From a virus (taxonomy: Duplodnaviria; Heunggongvirae; Uroviricota; Caudoviricetes): a stretch of 25,733 bases of DNA. Under the pieces are notes generated by a model. It ran no database searches, was not told where the DNA came from, and saw only the letters and a list, made by a program, of their open reading frames with translations. Location: positions 1 through 25,733 of the IMG/VR virus record IMGVR_UViG_2585427772_000005. One strand, given 5' to 3'. Shown piece by piece: positions 4,933 through 25,733 of this stretch (position 1 is the first letter of the stretch; each line of letters starts with the position of its first letter). The position numbers were made by a program, and so were the translations under genes.

Positions 4933-5775
4933 GATGGCAGCCTCCGCGATGAATTTGATTAACTCACCACCGAGGTTTTCCACGACCATAAGGGTGGTGA
5001 GACGTACAGGGGTGGAAATACCGGTCATCACGGAACCCGGCCAGCCTTGCGGCTGCCCTGCACGCCCCACCATAATGCGAATGTGGCTGTGCTTAACGCA
5101 TAAAAAAACCGCCTGAGCGCGGTTATGCGCCGTGAATGATTTCGGGTTTCCACGCCCGGCACCCGTTTTATGAGGTGCAGGTGCACTATAATTCCACCCG
5201 TTCTGGTTTTCAATAGCTACATTCAACATTTTCTCTACCTTTCATCACCGAAGTGAACTTTGTTGATGCGGTGCCTGGTGCCTCCAGGTGACGTTAACCA
5301 GTTAACAATTAACGTCGGATACAGAGCATTCCCGTTACGCCCGTAAAAGACCGCTTGTTTTAACTGTTCCGCGTGCGCTGAGCCGCATTCACCGCATCAC
5401 AAAATTCACTTTAAAAAGGGCGGCAGAGCAGTCACGGAGTAGAACTGATACCGCCAAAAGTCACCAGAAAATTGATAACAGAGGGCGTTGCAGCGGAGTT
5501 GTCACTTAAGCGTATGGTCAACCTGACAACCCGGTGTCCTCAACGGGGGAAGAAATACCCCCGCCATACTTACCGCCGCGCCATTTCGCGGATTGCCACA
5601 ACCGGAAGCGCACGATCGAATTAAATTTAACGACGACCTATACAGAGAGACTAACTTCTCCGGGCGCTTTCGTGTTATGCCCTGACTTTTCAGGGATATA
5701 TCCTTTTCAGTAAACTGTCAGTGCCGGATTCTTATCCGTGTCCGGCGCACGCACTCTACCTCACCTGTGAATAAA

Positions 5776-7892: not shown

Positions 7893-8933
7893 ATGGCTAA
7901 TGCCTGGCTCAGGTTATGGCATGACATGCCAAATGATCCTAAGTGGCGAACAATTTCCAGGGTGTCAGGACAGCCAATTGCAACAGTGATGGCGGTGTAT
8001 ATCCACCTTCTGGTGAGCGCGTCACGAAATGTCACGACATGTCACGGCGTGTCACTACGTGGTCACATTGATGTCACGACGGAAGATTTAGCAAGTGCGC
8101 TTGATGTGACGGAAGAAGTAATTGATTCAATTTTACAGGCAATGCAGGGGCGGGTACTTGATGGAGATTTAATCACCGGATGGGAAAAACGCCAGGTACT
8201 GAAAGAGGACAATGGCAACGTTTCACAAACCGCGAAATCCCCGGCAGAGCGCAAGAGAGCGCAGCGCGAGAGGGAAAAATTACGAAAACAGAATGAGGGG
8301 TGTCACGACGAGTCACGCATATGTCACGACATGTCACGACGAGTCACGACAGATAAAGATACAGATAAAGAATTAAACCCCACACATAACGCGCACGTGC
8401 GCGAGAGTGCTCCGACCAGTGAGTCGAGTGGTACGCCGTTGCAGGCAGCAGAACCTGCATCCCTGGATGGACTGAGCGAACCCATCGGGAAATTTCCGAT
8501 GGTCGATGACTGGCATCCGTCGCCGGATTTTCGACGACGGGCTGCGTTGTGGGGGATGGCTTTGCCGGAGCCGGAATTTACACCTGCTGAACTTGCCGCT
8601 TTCCGGGACTACTGGGCAGCGGAGGGGAAAGTTTTCACGCAGGTTCAGTGGGAGCAGAAATTCGCCCGTCACGTAAATCACGTCAGGGCGCAGGTTAAGC
8701 CAGTCAGCAAGGGGGTAAACCATGCAGCAGCACCAGGTGGCACCGCATCACGGGCAGTTCAGGAAATTCGGGCAGCACGTGAGCAGTGGGAACGTGAAAA
8801 CGGATTTATCAGCGACGGAAACGGTCTGGAAGCTGTGGGAACTCATGGGGGAGGTTTATTCGAACCGCTGGACCCAGAAGAACGGGGCCGCACCTTCGAA
8901 GCTCTGGATTGCACAGATTGGCGCGATGACTGA
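7893..8933 (+). CDS. Replication initiator (lambda O-like replisome organiser) with the origin embedded in its coding sequence
   Basis: N-terminus (MANAWLRLWHDMPNDPKWRTIS) resembles phage replisome-organiser N-domains. Two iteron clusters followed by an AT-rich block lie inside the ORF. The 3' end is uncertain because the last ~210 nt overlap the P-like gene in another frame. Confidence 0.7.
   Translation: MANAWLRLWHDMPNDPKWRTISRVSGQPIATVMAVYIHLLVSASRNVTTCHGVSLRGHIDVTTEDLASALDVTEEVIDSILQAMQGRVLDGDLITGWEKRQVLKEDNGNVSQTAKSPAERKRAQREREKLRKQNEGCHDESRICHDMSRRVTTDKDTDKELNPTHNAHVRESAPTSESSGTPLQAAEPASLDGLSEPIGKFPMVDDWHPSPDFRRRAALWGMALPEPEFTPAELAAFRDYWAAEGKVFTQVQWEQKFARHVNHVRAQVKPVSKGVNHAAAPGGTASRAVQEIRAAREQWERENGFISDGNGLEAVGTHGGGLFEPLDPEERGRTFEALDCTDWRDD
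8021..8082. repeat. Iteron cluster 1: six direct GTCAC(G) repeats at roughly 10-11 bp spacing
   Basis: Direct reading: GTCACGAAAT GTCACGACAT GTCACGGCGT GTCACTACGT G GTCACATTGAT GTCACGACGG. Confidence 0.75.
8302..8380. repeat. Iteron cluster 2 (five GTCACG repeats) followed by an AT-rich block; candidate origin of replication
   Basis: GTCACGACG A GTCACGCATAT GTCACGACAT GTCACGACGA GTCACGAC, then AGATAAAGATACAGATAAAGAATTAAA. The layout resembles the lambda ori inside gene O. Confidence 0.7.
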
Positions 8934-11970: not shown

Positions 11971-12229
11971 ATACAGCGAACGCTATTGGTTTAGTTGGAT
12001 ATTTACTGTGCCGGACAAAAACGGTTTGCAGGGAAATCTTAGTTAAGTAGAATGACTGTGGGTGCTTGAGGCTATCTGTCTCAGGCATGAACACCAAAAG
12101 GCAGATAGAGAAAAGCCCCAGTTAACATTACGCGTCCTGCAAGACGCTTAACATTAATCTGAGGCCATATCTATGCTCTACACACGTAGGTTAGCCTCTT
12201 ACGTGCCGAAAGGCAAGGAGAAGCAGGCT

Positions 12230-12385
12230 ATGAAGCAGCAAAAGGCGATGCTAATCGCCCTGATCGTCATCTGTTTAACCGTCATAGTGACGGCACTGGT
12301 AACGAGGAAAGACCTCTGCGAGGTACGAATCCGAACCGGCCAGACGGAGGTCGCTGTCTTCACAGCTTACGAACCTGAGGAGTAA
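12230..12385 (+). CDS. hok: Hok/Gef-family type I toxin (HokD/RelF-like, 51 aa)
   Basis: The translation MKQQKAMLIALIVICLTVIVTALVTRKDLCEVRIRTGQTEVAVFTAYEPEE has the Hok-family hydrophobic helix and conserved LC-E-R core, and matches the chromosomal HokD/RelF sequence as I recall it. The track ORF starting at 12173 is an in-frame upstream extension. A strong terminator follows. Confidence 0.8.
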   Translation: MKQQKAMLIALIVICLTVIVTALVTRKDLCEVRIRTGQTEVAVFTAYEPEE

Positions 12386-14170: not shown

Positions 14171-14545
14171 ATGCTCATAGATTTGGTTTTACCTTACCCG
14201 CCGACGGTGAACACTTACTGGCGACGCCGTGGCAGCACATATTTTGTATCAAAAGCCGGGGAGCGTTATCGCCGGGCAGTGGCGCTTATTGTTCGCCAGC
14301 AGCGGCTGAAATTAAGCCTGTCCGGAAGGCTGGCGATAAAGGTGATTGCAGAGCCACCGGATAAGCGTCGTCGCGACCTGGACAATATCCTGAAAGCACC
14401 GCTGGATGCGCTGACGCATGCGGGAGTGTTAATGGACGATGAGCAGTTTGATGAAATCAATATCGTTCGTGGTCAGCCAGTATCTGGTGGACGTATGGGG
14501 GTGAAGATTTACCCCATAATGCATGAAGAGCAGGTCAAAAAATGA
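14171..14545 (+). CDS. rusA: Crossover junction endodeoxyribonuclease RusA (Holliday junction resolvase)
   Basis: 124-aa ORF with AGAGGTG upstream. Conserved RusA pattern (PPTVNTYWRRRG ... DKRRRDLDNILKAPLDALTHAGVLMDDEQ). Confidence 0.85.
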   Translation: MLIDLVLPYPPTVNTYWRRRGSTYFVSKAGERYRRAVALIVRQQRLKLSLSGRLAIKVIAEPPDKRRRDLDNILKAPLDALTHAGVLMDDEQFDEINIVRGQPVSGGRMGVKIYPIMHEEQVKK

Positions 14546-15363
14546 AACTGGAAGATTTACCGAAATACTACTCCCCAAAATCCCCTGGCCTGACCGATGC
14601 ATCGGCCTCAACGTCAAAAGATGCGCTGAGTATCACTGATGTGATGGCCGCGCAGGGCATGACACAGAATCGGGCTGAGATGGGGTTTTCTGCGTTCCTG
14701 GGGAAAATGGGCATCAGTATGAATGACAGGGCGCGGGCAACAGAATTACTGGCAGATTATGCACTCAGTCGGTGCGATCGTGTGGCGGCGTTGAGAAAAC
14801 TTCCGGCAGAAATAAAACCGGTAGTGATGCGCATTATGGCTTCGTATGCGTTTGAAGATTATGCCCGTAGCGCGGCGAGCAAAAAACAGTGCCCCTGCTG
14901 TCACGGAAAAAAATTTATTGAAAGCGAGGTTTTTACAAACAAGATCCAGTATCCGGATGGTAAGCCACCAGTGTGGGCAAAGTGCACAAAAGGCGTGTAT
15001 CCGTCTTACTGGGAAGAATGGAAAAAAGTCAGGGAGGTGGTAAAAGTTGCCTGTCCGGAGTGTGGCGGAAAGGGTGAGGTTTCCACCGCCTGTAAGGATT
15101 GCCGTGGGCGTGGTGTCGCCATTCATCGTGAAGAGTCGGTAAAACGTGGTATGCCTGTTATCAGAGATTGCCAGCGTTGTGGTGGTCGTGGCTGTGAAAG
15201 GCTGCCATCAACGGAGGCATTTAATGCCATATGCAAAGTGACGAGTGCTATCACGCTTGATACGTGGAAAAAATCAGTGAAACGCTTTTACGATACGTTG
15301 GTGGTTCGGTTTGACATTGAAGAGGCATGGGCGGAGCGGCAGTTAAAGAGGGTAACGCGATAG
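14542..15363 (+). CDS. Late-gene antitermination protein Q (Cys-rich zinc-binding Q family)
   Basis: 273-aa ORF coupled to rusA by an ATGA overlap. Multiple CxxC pairs (CPCCHGK, CPECGGKGE, CKDCRGRG, CQRCGGRGC), placed immediately upstream of a PR'-like promoter. Confidence 0.8.
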   Translation: MKLEDLPKYYSPKSPGLTDASASTSKDALSITDVMAAQGMTQNRAEMGFSAFLGKMGISMNDRARATELLADYALSRCDRVAALRKLPAEIKPVVMRIMASYAFEDYARSAASKKQCPCCHGKKFIESEVFTNKIQYPDGKPPVWAKCTKGVYPSYWEEWKKVREVVKVACPECGGKGEVSTACKDCRGRGVAIHREESVKRGMPVIRDCQRCGGRGCERLPSTEAFNAICKVTSAITLDTWKKSVKRFYDTLVVRFDIEEAWAERQLKRVTR

Positions 15364-15368
15364 TGTTG

Positions 15369-15397
15369 TTGATTTTTCCCGAATCTGTGGTAAATTT
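15369..15397 (+). promoter_or_regulatory. Candidate late promoter PR' / Q-utilisation region
   Basis: TTGATT, a 16-nt spacer, then TAAATT preceded by TGTGG. Lambda PR' also has a TAAATT -10 element. It starts 6 nt after the Q stop. Confidence 0.45.
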
Positions 15398-15443
15398 GCT
15401 CTAACGATGGGCGTTTTATGCCTGACGTTAGAAGATTTTTTAC

Positions 15444-15469
15444 ACCCCGCCGCCTGGCGGGTTTTTTAT
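15444..15469 (+). terminator. Rho-independent terminator (tR'-like) downstream of the candidate PR'
   Basis: CCCGCC-GCCT-GGCGGG hairpin followed by TTTTTTAT. Confidence 0.6.
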
Positions 15470-15589
15470 GACTGAAATCGCGTCAGTACAGTAAACGCGC
15501 TGGTGGCGGTGAATACCTGTCTTTCAGCTTGCTGGCTTTTTCGACAAGAGTTATTGGTGTGTCACGTTAACCGGAAAAGGGAAAAAGAC

Positions 15590-15787
15590 ATGCTAAAACA
15601 GCAGGATATGACAGAAACCGCCAGAGTGGTGTTTAATGAATTAAGCGTTACCGAACCGGCGACAGTCGGGGAGATAGCGCAGAATACTTACCTTTCACGC
15701 GAACGCTGCCAGTTAATACTGACCCAGCTGGTTATGGCGGGTCTGGCAGACTATCAGTTCGGTTGTTACAGACGCCTTCCGCAGTGA
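15590..15787 (+). CDS. Small putative winged-helix DNA-binding protein, 65 aa, in the late leader
   Basis: AAGGG 8 nt upstream of the ATG at 15590; the track start at 15503 lacks an SD. HTH-like segment TVGEIAQNTYLSRERCQLILTQLVMAGLADY. It is bracketed by two intrinsic terminators. Confidence 0.45.
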   Translation: MLKQQDMTETARVVFNELSVTEPATVGEIAQNTYLSRERCQLILTQLVMAGLADYQFGCYRRLPQ

Positions 15788-15799
15788 AGGCTTTTTTAT
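15774..15799 (+). terminator. Rho-independent terminator overlapping the stop codon of the small winged-helix ORF
   Basis: GCCTTC-CGCAGT-GAAGGC hairpin followed by TTTTTTATT. Confidence 0.6.
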
Positions 15800-15814
15800 T
15801 TGTGGTAAATGGGC

Positions 15815-15845
15815 GGCTGGTGGGTGTTAGGGGCACCCACCAGCC
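15815..15845 (+). other. 12-bp perfect-stem hairpin (GGCTGGTGGGTG / CACCCACCAGCC) with a 7-nt loop
   Basis: Direct reading. No U-tract follows. It lies just after a second copy of TGTGGTAAAT. Confidence 0.5.
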
Positions 15846-15937
15846 ATCTGCTCATGCGTTGGGTTCACAAGCAAACCTCAGGCCCACTGCTTTGCGCAAA
15901 AGCAGAATGAGCCTATCAGAGACAGGCTTAATGATCC

Positions 15938-16987
15938 ATGCTTAATACTGTAAAAATATCCAGTTGTGAGTTAATCAACGCCGACTGCCTGGAATTTATC
16001 CGGTCGTTACCCGAAAATTCTGTTGACCTGATAGTCACGGACCCGCCGTACTTTAAAGTGAAGCCTGAGGGCTGGGATAACCAGTGGAAGGGCGACGATG
16101 ATTACCTGAAGTGGCTGGACCAGTGTCTGGCGCAGTTCTGGCGGGTGCTGAAACCTGTCGGAAGTCTTTACCTGTTCTGTGGTCATCGCCTGGCATCTGA
16201 TATCGAAATCATGATGCGTGAACGCTTCAGTGTGCTGAACCATATTATCTGGGCGAAGCCGTCCGGACGCTGGAACGGATGCAACAAGGAAAGCCTGCGG
16301 GCGTATTTCCCCGCCACAGAGCGCATTCTGTTCGCGGAACATTATCAGGGGCCGTATCGTCCGAAAGATGCCGGGTATGCGGCGAAGGGCAGTGCACTGA
16401 AACAGCATGTGATGGCCCCGCTGATTTCTTACTTTCGTGATGCGCGCGCGGCCCTGGGGATAACGGCAAAACAGATTGCAGATGCCACAGGAAAGAAAAA
16501 CATGGTGTCGCACTGGTTCAGTGCCAGTCAGTGGCAGCTACCGAACGAAAGCGATTATCTGAAATTACAGTCGCTGTTTGCCCGGGTGGCAGAAGAGAAA
16601 CATCAGCGCGGTGAACTGGAAAAGCCCCACCACCAGCTGGTGGATACGTATACGTCACTGAACCGGCAGTATGTGGAGCTGCAGAGTGAATATAAGCATC
16701 TGCGGCGGTATTTTGGTGTGACGGCGCAGGTGCCGTACACGGATGTGTGGACACATAAACCGGTGCAGTTCTATCCCGGGAAACATCCGTGCGAAAAACC
16801 GGCAGAAATGCTGCAGCAGATAATCAGCGCAAGCAGTCGTCCGGGTGACCTGGTTGCAGATTTTTTTATGGGCTCAGGTTCAACGGTAAAAGCTGCACTG
16901 GCGCTCGGGCGTCGTGCGATTGGCGTTGAACTGGAGACCGGACGTTTTGAGCAGACAGTCAGGGAAGTTCAGGATTTAATCGTTTGA
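15938..16987 (+). CDS. Orphan DNA methyltransferase (probably N6-adenine; DPPY motif IV N-terminal to FxGxG motif I)
   Basis: 349-aa ORF. DLIVTDPPYF near the N-terminus and DFFMGSGSTVKAA near the C-terminus. No restriction-endonuclease-like partner ORF is adjacent. Confidence 0.85.
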   Translation: MLNTVKISSCELINADCLEFIRSLPENSVDLIVTDPPYFKVKPEGWDNQWKGDDDYLKWLDQCLAQFWRVLKPVGSLYLFCGHRLASDIEIMMRERFSVLNHIIWAKPSGRWNGCNKESLRAYFPATERILFAEHYQGPYRPKDAGYAAKGSALKQHVMAPLISYFRDARAALGITAKQIADATGKKNMVSHWFSASQWQLPNESDYLKLQSLFARVAEEKHQRGELEKPHHQLVDTYTSLNRQYVELQSEYKHLRRYFGVTAQVPYTDVWTHKPVQFYPGKHPCEKPAEMLQQIISASSRPGDLVADFFMGSGSTVKAALALGRRAIGVELETGRFEQTVREVQDLIV

Positions 16988-17036
16988 AACGGATGAGATT
17001 GCAGAATTAATTACGCACCATTATTATTCTGCTTCC

Positions 17037-17112
17037 GGCCCTTTAGCTCAGTGGTGAGAGCGAGCGACTCATAATCGCCAGGTCGCTGGTTCAAATCCAG
17101 CAAGGGCCACCA
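17037..17112 (+). tRNA. tRNA with CAU anticodon, most likely tRNA-Ile2 (lysidine-modified, reads AUA)
   Basis: Cloverleaf read by hand: acceptor GGCCCTT/AAGGGCC, D-arm GCTC..GAGC, anticodon loop CTCATAA, T-arm GCTGG-TTCAAAT-CCAGC, encoded CCA. Closely resembles E. coli tRNA-Ile2 as recalled. Confidence 0.85.
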
Positions 17113-17212
17113 TCACAAACCGCCATTAGCTTATCAGGAAGAGCAGACGACACGATAACAGGGTTGTTGGTGCGGGGGCGGGTCCCCGATGACGGTCCAT
17201 TATCGGTATTCA

Positions 17213-17289
17213 GCGTTGTTAGCTCAGCCGGACAGAGCAATTGCCTTCTAAGCAATCGGTCACTGGTTCGAATCCAGTACAGCGCGCCA
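17213..17289 (+). tRNA. tRNA-Arg (anticodon UCU, reads AGA/AGG)
   Basis: Cloverleaf: acceptor GCGTTGT/ACAGCGC with one G-U pair, anticodon stem ATTGC/GCAAT, loop CTTCTAA, T-arm ACTGG-TTCGAAT-CCAGT, encoded CCA. Confidence 0.9.
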
Positions 17290-17396
17290 TATTCATTCTT
17301 CCAGATTCCTTTCGGCAGAGCCTTATACTGAAATATACCTGGCTCAGGATATTGTTGAAAATATTATATGTTTGTCAAAAATAAAAGTTCTGTTAA

Positions 17397-17753: not shown

Positions 17754-18144
17754 ATACATATCTGGATTATCACCGGTTACGGTAAAAAGTGATTGCTTAC
17801 TGTTTTTGTGAATGGCATTGCAGCAGCCGGATAATGTCAGTGCTGGCTGACGGTGTGCTGGTGGCGGGGGTGGTGGTTGCTGCTTTCCCGTTGCTGAAAA
17901 AGAAAACGCCAGACTGTTAGCCGGGTATCAGTTAGCGGGAGAAATTTTTAAATACTTCACAATTCAGGCGGTTGACTGTTGTCTGGTTTGCGGGGAGTTT
18001 GTTAAAAGAAACTGGCATGGTGAATCCCCCTGTGCGGAGGGGCAATCAGCGAGTAGGTATATGGGATAATCGCGGATTCAGGTGCTGGTACTGAATTCAC
18101 CGGGAGGCACCCGGCACCATGCAATGGCACATAGCGCCACTCTC

Positions 18145-18178
18145 CAGCCCCTCTCCGGAGGGGCTGTTTATATTGATT
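18145..18178 (+). terminator. Strong rho-independent terminator
   Basis: 9-bp perfect GC-rich stem CAGCCCCTC / GAGGGGCTG with loop TCCG, followed by TTTATATTGATTTT. It lies 23 nt beyond the 3' end of the minus-strand ORF 18201..18536. Confidence 0.65.
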
Positions 18179-24192: not shown

Positions 24193-25733
24193 CAGTGAAA
24201 TACTACGCCATTCTGACTAATCAGGGCGCGGCACGACTGGCTAACGCGACGATGCTCGGCAGTAAGCTGAATCTGACGCGAATGGCCGTTGGTGATGCAA
24301 ATGGTGTGTTACCAACACCAGACCCTGCACAAACAAAACTGATTAACCAGAAACGCATTGCACCGCTGAATCTTCTGAGTGTTGACCCTAACAATCAGAG
24401 CCAGATTATTGCGGAGCAAATCATCCCTGAAAGCGAGGGTGGATTCTGGATCCGTGAGATTGGTCTTTATGATGATAAAGGTGTACTCATTGCGGTGGCA
24501 AACTGCCCGGAAACGTACAAACCGCAGTTGCAGGAAGGCAGTGGACGCACCCAGACTATCCGCATGATTCTGGTTGTCACGAACACCGAAGCCATCACGC
24601 TGAAAATCGACCCGTCTGTGGTTCTGGCAACCCGCAAATATGTGGATGATAAAATCTCAAAGCACGAGCAGTCACGACGTCACCCGGACGCCTCGCTGAC
24701 CGCAAAAGGCTTTGTTCAACTTAGCAGTGCCACGGACAGTCAATCAGAAACTGAGGCTGCCACGCCGAAGGCTGTGAAAATCGCGTATGATCTGGCCTGG
24801 GGAAAATACACAGCCCAGGATGCAACAACGACCCGTAAAGGGATCGTACAACTGAGCAGTGCCACCAACAGCACCTCTGAAACGCTGGCCGCCACACCAA
24901 AAGCCGTCAAGGCGGCATACGACCTTGCAGCCGGCAAGGCCCCCGTCAGCCACACTCACCCATGGAGTCAGATAACGGGAGTGCCTGCTGCCTCGCTGAC
25001 GGCAAAAGGCACCGTACAACTGAGCAGTGCCATCAACAGCACGTCTGAAATACTGGCCGCCACACCGAAAGCGGTCAAGGATGCATACGATCTGGCAAAC
25101 GGAAAACAACCGGCAGATGCCACGCTCACTGCTCTGGCAGGACTTGCCACTGCAGCAGATCGGTTGCCTTATTTTACCGGAGCAGACCGCGCAGCGCTGG
25201 CAACCCTTACAGCTATTGGTCGCGCTATTATCGCTAAGGGCAGTATAAAAGATGTCCTCAATTACCTTGGTTTGGGGGAAGGCTCTGCATTGCCTGTTGG
25301 TGTACCGGTTCCGTGGCCCACCGCCACACCGCCAGAAGGCTGGTTAAAGTGCGACGGGCGCGCCTTTACAAAAGAACAATATCCTGTTCTGGCCAGAGCC
25401 TACCCGACCCTCCGTCTTCCCGATTTACGCGGTGAATTTATTCGTGGCTGGGATGACGGACGTGGTGTGGATGCCGGGCGACAATTATTATCTTCACAGG
25501 GGGATGCAATAAGAAATATTGAGGGATTCGCAGATGGCGGGATCGGTATGTCTTTTGATGCAATCAGAGGGGCTTTTTACGATGCAGGAACACGATCAGC
25601 GAGAATGCCGAATAACACAACTACTATAGACAAAACCGATGACCTTGGATTCGACGCCTCTCGTGTCGTGCCAACAGCTAATGAAAACCGTCCTCGTAAT
25701 ATTGCCTTTAATTATATCGTAAGGGCGGCATAA
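24189..25733 (+). CDS. Tail fibre protein (P2 gpH-like N-terminus, three tail-fibre repeats, C-terminal collar/receptor-binding-like domain)
   Basis: ATGA overlap with I. The N-terminus matches P2 H (GGFWIREIGLYDDKGVLIAVAN ... YKPQLQEGSGR ... KYVDDKISKHEQSRRHPDASLTAKGF). The stop codon is at the last three bases of the window. Confidence 0.85.
   Translation: MTVKYYAILTNQGAARLANATMLGSKLNLTRMAVGDANGVLPTPDPAQTKLINQKRIAPLNLLSVDPNNQSQIIAEQIIPESEGGFWIREIGLYDDKGVLIAVANCPETYKPQLQEGSGRTQTIRMILVVTNTEAITLKIDPSVVLATRKYVDDKISKHEQSRRHPDASLTAKGFVQLSSATDSQSETEAATPKAVKIAYDLAWGKYTAQDATTTRKGIVQLSSATNSTSETLAATPKAVKAAYDLAAGKAPVSHTHPWSQITGVPAASLTAKGTVQLSSAINSTSEILAATPKAVKDAYDLANGKQPADATLTALAGLATAADRLPYFTGADRAALATLTAIGRAIIAKGSIKDVLNYLGLGEGSALPVGVPVPWPTATPPEGWLKCDGRAFTKEQYPVLARAYPTLRLPDLRGEFIRGWDDGRGVDAGRQLLSSQGDAIRNIEGFADGGIGMSFDAIRGAFYDAGTRSARMPNNTTTIDKTDDLGFDASRVVPTANENRPRNIAFNYIVRAA
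24690..25110 (+). repeat. Three tandem roughly 145-bp in-frame repeats in the fibre gene (TAKGxVQLSSAxNSTSExLAATPKAVKxAYDLAxGK)
   Basis: Direct reading of DNA and protein. The repeats also create the spurious antisense ORFs 24740..24955, 24744..25109 and 24968..25150. Confidence 0.8.

Follow-up and report, generated by a model that had tools for sequence, protein, structure and literature searches.

Does a 10-mer that occurs twice in one phage leader mark a second place at which the Q antiterminator acts, or has it recurred by chance, and what is the hairpin next to its second copy part of? These questions are raised by the stretch between a Q gene and a DNA methyltransferase gene (15364-15945) in the IMG/VR virus record IMGVR_UViG_2585427772_000005 (Caudoviricetes), of which positions 1 to 25,733 were analyzed, hereafter the window. 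An earlier reading made from the letters alone (the sequence-only reading) had pointed there to the duplicated 10-mer, two terminators, a small winged-helix open reading frame (ORF) and a 12-bp perfect hairpin. Our results show that copy 2 of the 10-mer is the 5' edge, and the 12-bp hairpin is helix P2, of a structured element of ~140 nt (15801-15940). Overall, the interval is a mosaic late leader of a known kind, holding an apparently undescribed and strongly covarying element. Taking all parts of the proposed explanation jointly, we regard it as fairly probable that this is a lambda-type late-operon leader with a mobile two-gene cassette inserted downstream of the terminator tR'.

A covarying element in front of the methylase gene

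The 12-bp inverted repeat (15815-15826 with 15834-15845, 7-nt loop) was confirmed as perfect and makes up P2 on the plus strand, the strand of all features below unless stated otherwise. Together with P1 (15810-15814 with 15882-15886, UGGGC/GCCCA) and P3 (15847-15856 with 15866-15875) it forms a three-way junction (15810-15886), which is followed by two hairpins, P4 (15887-15893 with 15899-15905) and P5 (15908-15913 with 15925-15930), the latter in a register that differs between the Enterobacteriaceae and the Providencia groups. All five helices were given by RNAalifold and pair counts. The conserved single-stranded 5' flank of this structure, (U)GUGRAAA, and the base that opens P1 both come from copy 2 of the 10-mer (15801-15810).

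Across the Enterobacterales the element is kept from copy 2 through the methylase ATG, in Escherichia, Salmonella, Kluyvera, Citrobacter, Klebsiella, Pseudocitrobacter, Buttiauxella, Scandinavium, Enterobacter, Mixta, Mangrovibacter and a Providencia-type group, and across at least 11 genera its nucleotide conservation is higher than that of the neighbouring ORF. With 37 diverse leaders aligned by MAFFT and not fitted to the model, 85.6% of the cells were paired, as compared to 33-44% when the partners were slid, and 12 pairs were changed on both sides; the observed values were reached by none of 500 shuffles. When a model-fitted alignment of 74 distinct sequences was used, 24 of the 38 pairs showed changes on both sides. 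P2 has been wholly rewritten with compensation in the Providencia-type loci and in one further locus (L159), and P1 shows a double change from G-C to A-U in Mixta. A covariance model scored 120-170 bits in every full-length leader (68 of 68) and gave a single match in the window, of 129 bits, at 15800-15949. Leader length varies by non-multiples of three, thus the element is not coding.

Over 15801-15940 no family of Rfam 15 was found at gathering threshold, and the best match at E ≤ 10 was the Pseudomonas P26 RNA on the minus strand, with 24 bits against a threshold of 36. Nor was any description of the structured element, of the fold of the small ORF or of the second terminator found in the literature searched. 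Several other identities were tried and set aside. A leader peptide, MGGWWVL with its tandem Trp, could be read from the AUG of AAAUGGGCGG, but it has no Shine-Dalgarno, its frame length varies and the peptide is not conserved, the counterparts at the leader AUG being MGDCKG... in Providencia and MGDSED... in L159. The known prophage small RNAs AgvB, AsxR, StxS, Pas and STnc100 gave no Rfam match over the region, and their published positions are 3' of the moron (see below) or at the PR' of other Q types. A CRP site (TGTGA ... TCACA) was dismissed by inspection, the half-sites lying ~58 nt apart. An S-adenosylmethionine (SAM) or S-adenosylhomocysteine riboswitch is likewise unsupported, as there is no Rfam match and the copies in lambda and in holin-type leaders precede genes unrelated to SAM. 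As a separate observation, remoter methylase homologues (L169-L186, 72-76% amino acid identity to the Providencia-type query) have a shorter leader of ~95 nt, where only GGTGAAATGG and a covarying P2-like hairpin are kept, except in L169, with a near-full leader of 87 bits.

Two copies of a 10-mer

Exact copies of the 10-mer TGTGGTAAAT occur in the whole window only at 15386-15395 (copy 1) and 15801-15810 (copy 2), where the sequence-only reading had placed them, and the match extends to 12 of 13 identical bases, ATCTGTGGTAAAT in copy 1 and ATTTGTGGTAAAT in copy 2. The further claim, that a chance repeat of a 10-mer within about 400 bp is unlikely, did not hold up. An exact direct 10-mer repeat was present in 11% of simulated 582-nt regions obtained by mononucleotide shuffling and in 16% of those drawn from a first-order Markov model, and when one mismatch was allowed the three matches observed were reached by 24 of 100 shuffles. 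The 25.7-kb window itself holds 85 overlapping 10-mer pairs at most 600 nt apart, or ~40 independent repeats as read from the list.

The exact match is moreover not conserved at copy 2, where most E. coli relatives carry the 9-mer TGTGGTAAT and other genera CTGTG(A/G)AA(A)T. Co-occurrence of the two copies was scored in 98 loci with enough upstream sequence. Both a window-type PR' and the exact 10-mer at copy 2 were present in 14 loci and neither in 62, while 16 loci had the exact 10-mer without a window-type PR' and 6 had a window-type PR' with the 9-mer at copy 2, i.e. the two copies assort independently among relatives. The shuffles, the window-wide count, the independent assortment and the variant sequences at copy 2 all argue that the repeat is a coincidence of ordinary chance, as is the likeness of copy 2 to the -10 region of PR'.

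Q, PR' and tR' are of the lambda type

Copy 1 had been placed inside a PR'-like element downstream of a Q gene, and both descriptions proved right. Q (14542-15363, 273 aa) matches Pfam Antiterm (PF03589, E 2e-49) and the Q-lambda structure PDB 7UBM (E 2e-38), with residues 1-113 and 182-273 aligning to the solved structures. The -35 hexamer of PR', TTGATT (15369-15374), aligns with TTGACT of lambda PR' and is separated by a 16-nt spacer from the extended -10, TGgTAAATT (15388-15396), which copy 1 overlaps. Six nt further downstream lies AACGATGGG (15403-15411), a -10-like, sigma70-dependent pause-inducing element at +1 to +6 of PR', followed by GGG and identical to that of lambda. Alignment with lambda (NC_001416) showed GGTAAATTTG.CTC.AACGATGGG to be common to both PR' regions. 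At the +16 pause of lambda, where Q loads, sigma70 is held by the -10-like element AACGAT. By every feature that can be tested on the sequence, the PR' part belongs to the lambda Q/qut family.

Downstream of PR' stands the intrinsic terminator tR' (15446-15468), a stem-loop with six G-C pairs at 15446-15461 followed by T7, from the position of which a PR' leader RNA of ~65 nt is predicted. With the second stem-loop at 15774-15791, followed by T6, both of the intrinsic-terminator-like sites reported by the sequence-only reading were recovered. The likeness to the late region of lambda (Q, PR', qut, 6S RNA/tR') lies in the homology of Q, the -10 TAAATT, the spacing, AACGATGGG and a short terminated leader RNA. 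The window differs from lambda by a ~68-aa zinc-finger-like insertion in Q, by the sequence between the -35 and the -10, which is the position of the Q-binding element in lambda, by the length of the leader RNA (~65 nt vs. 194 nt) and by the two-gene cassette and tRNA genes that lie between tR' and the lysis genes. The insertion in Q (residues 114-181) carries extra CxxC..CxxC motifs that are DnaJ-like and zinc-finger-like and splits the two Q-lambda-type halves, an architecture also seen in the Q of locus L204. A scan for sigma70 promoters over 15000-17300, both strands, made no calls; PR' itself was among those missed (8/12, below the cut-off of the tool), hence the scan is insensitive here.

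A mobile cassette inserted behind tR'

One of the explanations offered by the sequence-only reading, that the small ORF and its terminator were inserted into a late leader, was borne out, with the methylase as part of the insertion. In most Stx2 phages, phiP27 and 1720a-02, similarity to the window begins only at ~15446, i.e. at the stem of tR', which is also the mosaic junction, and phage Evi matches it only up to 15467. In Evi the same Q-PR'-tR' arrangement is followed directly by tRNA genes, with no cassette. Upstream of the cassette phiP27 and 1720a-02 have an unrelated Q of 126 aa. Across 104 related loci the PR' leader in front of the cassette takes several different sequences, and in all the cassette follows two or more unrelated types of Q. 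These mosaic patterns indicate that the 65-aa ORF with its own terminator, the ~140-nt element and the methylase form a mobile cassette.

The Q-to-stx regions of phiP27, 1720a-02 and Stx2a phages have the same small ORF and the same leader in the same position, between Q and the tRNA or stx genes. In Stx2 phages (phiP27, 1720a-02 and many Stx2a phages) this is the region between Q/PR' and the Shiga-toxin genes, so every PR' transcript that reaches stx crosses the second terminator and the folded element, and the two would be part of the circuit that sets toxin output. The cassette also resembles morons, the inserts of lambdoid late operons (Juhala et al. 2000, as cited by Tree et al. 2014, PMC4104026), since its insertion site is the one used by stx and prophage small RNAs. 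A moron would have a promoter and a terminator of its own; the cassette ORF has its own terminator, and the motif that precedes it, of sigma70-like spacing but with a non-consensus -10, is a candidate promoter. The anti-small RNAs described at this site (AgvB, AsxR, STnc100/PasD) are located 3' of the moron and do not match the structured element.

The 65-aa protein and the second terminator

The small winged-helix ORF between Q and the methyltransferase (15590-15787, 65 aa) is a genuine gene of that fold. It is annotated in RefSeq (WP_000917767.1; phrog_331; NCBI label 'TrmB family'), and AlphaFold2 predicted a canonical winged helix (H1-H2-H3 plus a beta-hairpin wing) with a mean pLDDT of 92. 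The nearest solved folds are the winged-helix domains of MarR and IclR regulators, the N-termini of O-methyltransferases and, lower down, SelB. Matches in Pfam (TrmB, MarR, DprA_WH) were all weak, and there was no NCBIfam match and no relevant PADLOC match. Lambda orf-64, tried as a relative, showed no similarity.

At 40-60 nt upstream of the ORF lies the motif CTTGCTG-N17-TAYNTG..TGTCA (15528-15565), within which relatives show a partial palindrome, CAGAGTTATCTG. The motif keeps a constant distance from the ORF in all genera examined and is absent from loci that have no ORF; judged by this distribution, it may be the cassette's own promoter or operator. The stop codon of the ORF is located in the loop of the second intrinsic terminator (15774-15800), which consists of the stem-loop at 15774-15791 followed by TTTTTTATT. 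In other genera the hairpin has different stem sequences and a weaker T-tract, and the Providencia group has none.

The sequence-only reading had also likened the gene pair to the controller layout of restriction-modification (R-M) systems. Controller (C) proteins of such systems are Xre-type helix-turn-helix (HTH) proteins of ~80-100 aa (Pfam HTH_3/HTH_31) that bind C-boxes upstream of the C-R operon and time endonuclease expression. What remains of this likeness is gene position, a small helix-turn-helix protein gene adjoining a methyltransferase gene. The rest does not fit, as the 65-aa protein is a winged helix of the MarR/TrmB/IclR type that matches no controller family, an endonuclease gene is neither annotated nor seen beside the cassette (Q, the methylase and tRNA genes are found there), a terminator stands between the two genes in E. 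coli, and the ORF is missing from some loci, the leader and methylase being present without it in L157, L165 and L168. Another comparison is with com-mom of phage Mu. Com is a zinc-finger RNA-binding protein, com overlaps mom, and Com opens an inhibitory stem over the mom start. Like Mu, the window has a small protein gene immediately 5' of a DNA-modification gene that is potentially toxic and is started within RNA secondary structure. Unlike Com, the window protein is a winged helix without a zinc finger; the genes are ~150 nt apart with a terminator between them, and a window-type leader persists where the ORF is lacking. A Com/mom-like role of the 65-aa protein would be an analogy only.

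The methylase and a proposed mechanism of its silencing

The gene downstream, called an orphan methyltransferase before, encodes a beta-class N6-adenine DNA methyltransferase of 349 aa (15938-16987; Pfam N6_N4_Mtase, PF01555, E 3e-44). Its motif order is that of the beta class, with TDPPYF at residues 34-39 near the N-terminus and DFFMGSGS, the FxGxG motif, near residue 308 in the C-terminal part, and its relatives in the PDB are beta-class as well. It is 95% identical to the methylase of phage 1720a-02, which is very similar to M.EcoGII (Murray et al. 2018, PMC5778455). M.EcoGII is a prophage-encoded enzyme of 349 aa that methylates adenine non-specifically, is silent in the lysogen and is deleterious when constitutively expressed (Murray et al. 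2018). Length, class and the positions of DPPY near the N-terminus and FxGxG near the C-terminus agree with the M.EcoGII and M.EcoGI enzymes (349-352 aa), and these matches identify the window methylase as a member of the M.EcoGII family. A weak internal HTH_3-like stretch (E 0.03) was seen at residues 167-195, where the target-recognition domain is expected.

M.EcoGII, a non-specific adenine methylase, is toxic to its host and in wide use as a tool. The literature searched covers the enzymes and their silence in the lysogen, not the upstream element, and in it no description was found of how the phage silences a methylase of this family. In the window, the start codon and the bases before it form the near-invariant UGAUC(U/C)AUG (15932-15940). 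There is no Shine-Dalgarno within 12 nt of the start, and none in any clade. The UGAUC is complementary to GGUCA or GAUCA in the loop of P3, and this candidate pseudoknot (GGUCA:UGAUC) is 96.8% paired in the alignment. Predicted accessibility of the start region (-14 to +3) was below that of upstream-shuffled controls in 31 of 37 homologues (0.33 vs. 0.43).

What the sequences show directly is anatomy, homology, mosaic structure and covariation; from these we infer that the promoter is active, that Q loads, that the terminators are efficient and that translation is gated. PR' is presumably constitutive, and the polymerase would pause at the AACGAT element, where a Q of the Q-lambda family would load; without Q, transcription would stop at tR' and give the ~65-nt RNA. 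The methylase would then be insulated by three layers, tR', the second terminator and a folded leader without a Shine-Dalgarno, in which P5, and perhaps also the P3-loop pseudoknot, would bury the start. The second terminator would also stop transcripts started at the CTTGCTG-N17-TAYNTG motif. We infer that the three layers are there because the methylase would be harmful if made in the lysogen. After induction, a Q-modified, terminator-resistant polymerase would read through both terminators, and only such transcription would deliver enough message, upon which the methylase would modify progeny DNA. Most likely, the two terminators and the occluding leader keep the methylase off until Q-modified read-through.

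Homologues in lambda and in holin leaders

The covariance model also matches lambda, at 45,016-45,138, between tR' and S. Pairwise, lambda 45,016-45,099 (L188 1217-1300) scores 10-11 standard deviations above shuffles against the Providencia-type leaders. The lambda stretch has GUGAAA, P2 and P3 in common with the 5' half of the element; P1 is absent, and so is the 3' half with P4, P5 and the start of the methylase, either through loss or because they were never present. A pattern scan of IMG/VR for the P3 core found at least 120 loci, of which the first 80 were classified. No methylase start motif was present in 79 of these, and nearly all such loci that were inspected are lambda-type leaders directly 5' of holin genes; L204 (5400-5620) has the full three-way junction, P1 included, in front of a holin. 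The 5' half is therefore a general late-leader component, found between the PR' terminators and whichever lethal late gene comes first. A conserved, covarying RNA element with a homologue before lambda S would be a further part of a regulatory region that is among the best studied.

Weighing the mechanism and its alternatives

Several observations weigh against silencing of the methylase by three layers that act on the sense transcript. The Providencia-group cassettes have no second terminator, and the three layers are therefore not universal. The candidate pseudoknot shows no covariation and, with its columns invariant, is unproven though compatible with the alignment; the effect on accessibility of the start region is modest. 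The 5' half of the element also precedes holin genes where there is no methylase, so its role is not methylase-specific. Finally, counting wobbles and mismatches does not point to the sense strand in particular. P3 has 78 A.C cells against 3 G.U on the plus strand, with such mismatches in every clade, and each of them would read as G.U on the opposite strand; RNAalifold gives a consensus energy of -28.8 kcal/mol for the minus and -14.4 kcal/mol for the plus strand, and overall pairing is 87.0% on the minus and 85.6% on the plus strand. P5 has 50 G.U against 12 A.C on the plus strand, and both P2 and P5 carry plus-strand G.U pairs. A choice of strand from these counts and energies was given up, as the helices contradict one another.

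The element, wholly or in part, could therefore be the gene for a minus-strand small RNA which pairs with the leader of the first lethal late gene and silences leaky read-through in lysogens. The target would be the methylase here and holin S in lambda-like phages, and by analogy with hok/sok and CopA/CopT there may be structure on both strands. Besides the P3 mismatches, found in all three clades, and the RNAalifold preference, two plus-strand A.C mismatches in P2 of L204 point in this direction. So do the canonical intrinsic terminators that 27 of 113 lambda-type late leaders carry on the minus strand just past the element, in the form of seven hairpin variants with compensatory stem changes. 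Such a terminator is absent beyond the element in this window, and no convincing minus-strand sigma70 promoter was found; the best candidate, TTACTG/TTGTTA-N17-TACTGT/TAATGT (lambda, L204), is weak and its -10 is not conserved in methylase-type leaders. The micro-variants of P2 in E. coli all give plus-strand G.U pairs, and the P5 counts likewise favour the plus strand. Given the P3 mismatches, the RNAalifold preference and the minus-strand terminators, we take an antisense RNA or a cis-antisense pair as a serious alternative, while thinking it unlikely that the element is such a gene. Only tentatively do we suggest the wider reading, that lambdoid phages including lambda (45,016-45,100) carry an undescribed late-leader RNA, a three-way junction preceded by GUGAAA, possibly as a cis-antisense pair silencing lethal late genes in lysogens. 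The minus-strand RNA, with a dedicated terminator in part of the family, would then pair with the sense leader; if true, this would be a type-I-antitoxin-like silencing of lethal late-gene read-through until Q-driven transcription overwhelms it.

Other explanations compete with Q-gated read-through past two terminators and an occluding leader. The 65-aa protein could control the methylase, either as a DNA-binding repressor or activator in the manner of C proteins or, like Com, by binding the leader RNA and opening the occluded start. A small regulator-like gene directly 5' of a DNA-modification gene, in an order conserved across genera, would suit such a role, and so would the confident winged helix (some winged-helix domains bind RNA hairpins, and SelB is among the fold matches), the conserved motif upstream of the ORF and a structured methylase start region that has no Shine-Dalgarno. 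We nevertheless hold this control to be improbable. Leader and methylase exist without the ORF, and the sequence of P2 varies freely with compensation, which makes its sequence-specific recognition unlikely; to this are added the mismatch with Xre-type and other controller families, the absent endonuclease and the E. coli terminator between ORF and methylase. It is highly improbable that P2 is mainly one more terminator of a tandem late-leader series and that the remaining conservation is a recombination 'boundary' between phage modules rather than a folded RNA. A U-rich stretch does follow P2 in lambda and in the Providencia group (GUUUUGCCCGU, AUUUGCCCGU), and L204 has two tandem plus-strand terminators before the element. 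Tandem late terminators were reportedly described in lambda by Luk and Szybalski in 1983; nothing on them or on antisense transcripts of lambda was found in the limited literature searched. In the window, however, P2 is followed by AUCUGCUCAUG, which is no U-tract, and the scan calls no terminator there, and neither the long-range pairing of P1 nor the covariation of P3 is predicted by a terminator or a boundary. Barely credible, in our view, is the proposal of the sequence-only reading that copy 2 acts as another site of Q engagement (a second qut) or as a further promoter-like site, or its variant, a sigma70-dependent pause element in which TAAAT is followed by GGG. Apart from the 12 of 13 bases shared with the PR' -10 region, it could appeal to other genera, where copy 2 reads TGtGAAAAT GGG, like an extended -10 with a GGG discriminator. 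Yet copy 2 has no -35, its best hexamer (TAAATG) has no T at -7, many relatives have no A at -11 (GGAAAT, GGTAAT), and no AACGAT-type pause-inducing element lies downstream. Copy 2 is kept when the Q upstream is of an unrelated type, and its distribution is independent of that of copy 1; its lambda homologue, GTGAAAGCGGG, does not resemble a -10, and M.EcoGII-type genes are reported to be silent in lysogens. A start 7 nt downstream of copy 2 would also remove an arm of the covarying P1; copy 2 ends on the base with which P1 begins, and RNA initiated from copy 2 would be unable to form this helix.

Distribution and other features of the window

The gene order is like that of a lambdoid prophage, with a DUF968 gene, RusA, Q, the 65-aa ORF, the methyltransferase, tRNA genes and further late-region genes. 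Many E. coli chromosomes contain 15300-16000 with 100% identity; of 5,426 complete genomes of the species, 2,490 gave some match to this interval and 1,094 hold 80% or more of it. An enterobacterial cassette was also present in two contigs labelled as a Bacillus metagenome-assembled genome (L004) and a Chryseobacterium isolate (L014), whose small ORFs are 98% and 79% identical at the amino acid level, respectively; its presence there is probably due to contamination or mis-binning of the source assemblies.

Downstream of the methylase, tRNA genes are located at 17037-17112 (anticodon CAT; annotated as tRNA-Ile/ileZ in relatives) and 17213-17289 (tRNA-Arg, TCT). An otherwise identical strain (L001) has three tRNA genes at this place, a difference that lies downstream of the methylase. 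At the Rfam gathering threshold, STnc100 small RNA was matched 3' of the tRNA genes, at 17986-18175, and a sok antitoxin RNA adjoining a hokD-like toxin gene at 12060-12235. On the minus strand, gathering-threshold matches to C4 antisense RNA (4990-5077), isrK (5102-5178) and DicF (5418-5469) make 4990-5469 a cluster of known prophage small RNAs in the immunity/early region.

Repeats other than the 10-mer were noted in two places. At 8029-8340 there are at least five direct copies of ATGTCACGAC(G/A) in irregular, iteron-like spacing, which probably mark a replication origin inside an O-like gene. At 24723-25055 direct repeats of 10-20 nt, spaced by 132 and 168 nt (AGCAGTGCCA..., CGTACAACTGAGCAGTGCC...), may reflect a repeated domain in a late structural gene.

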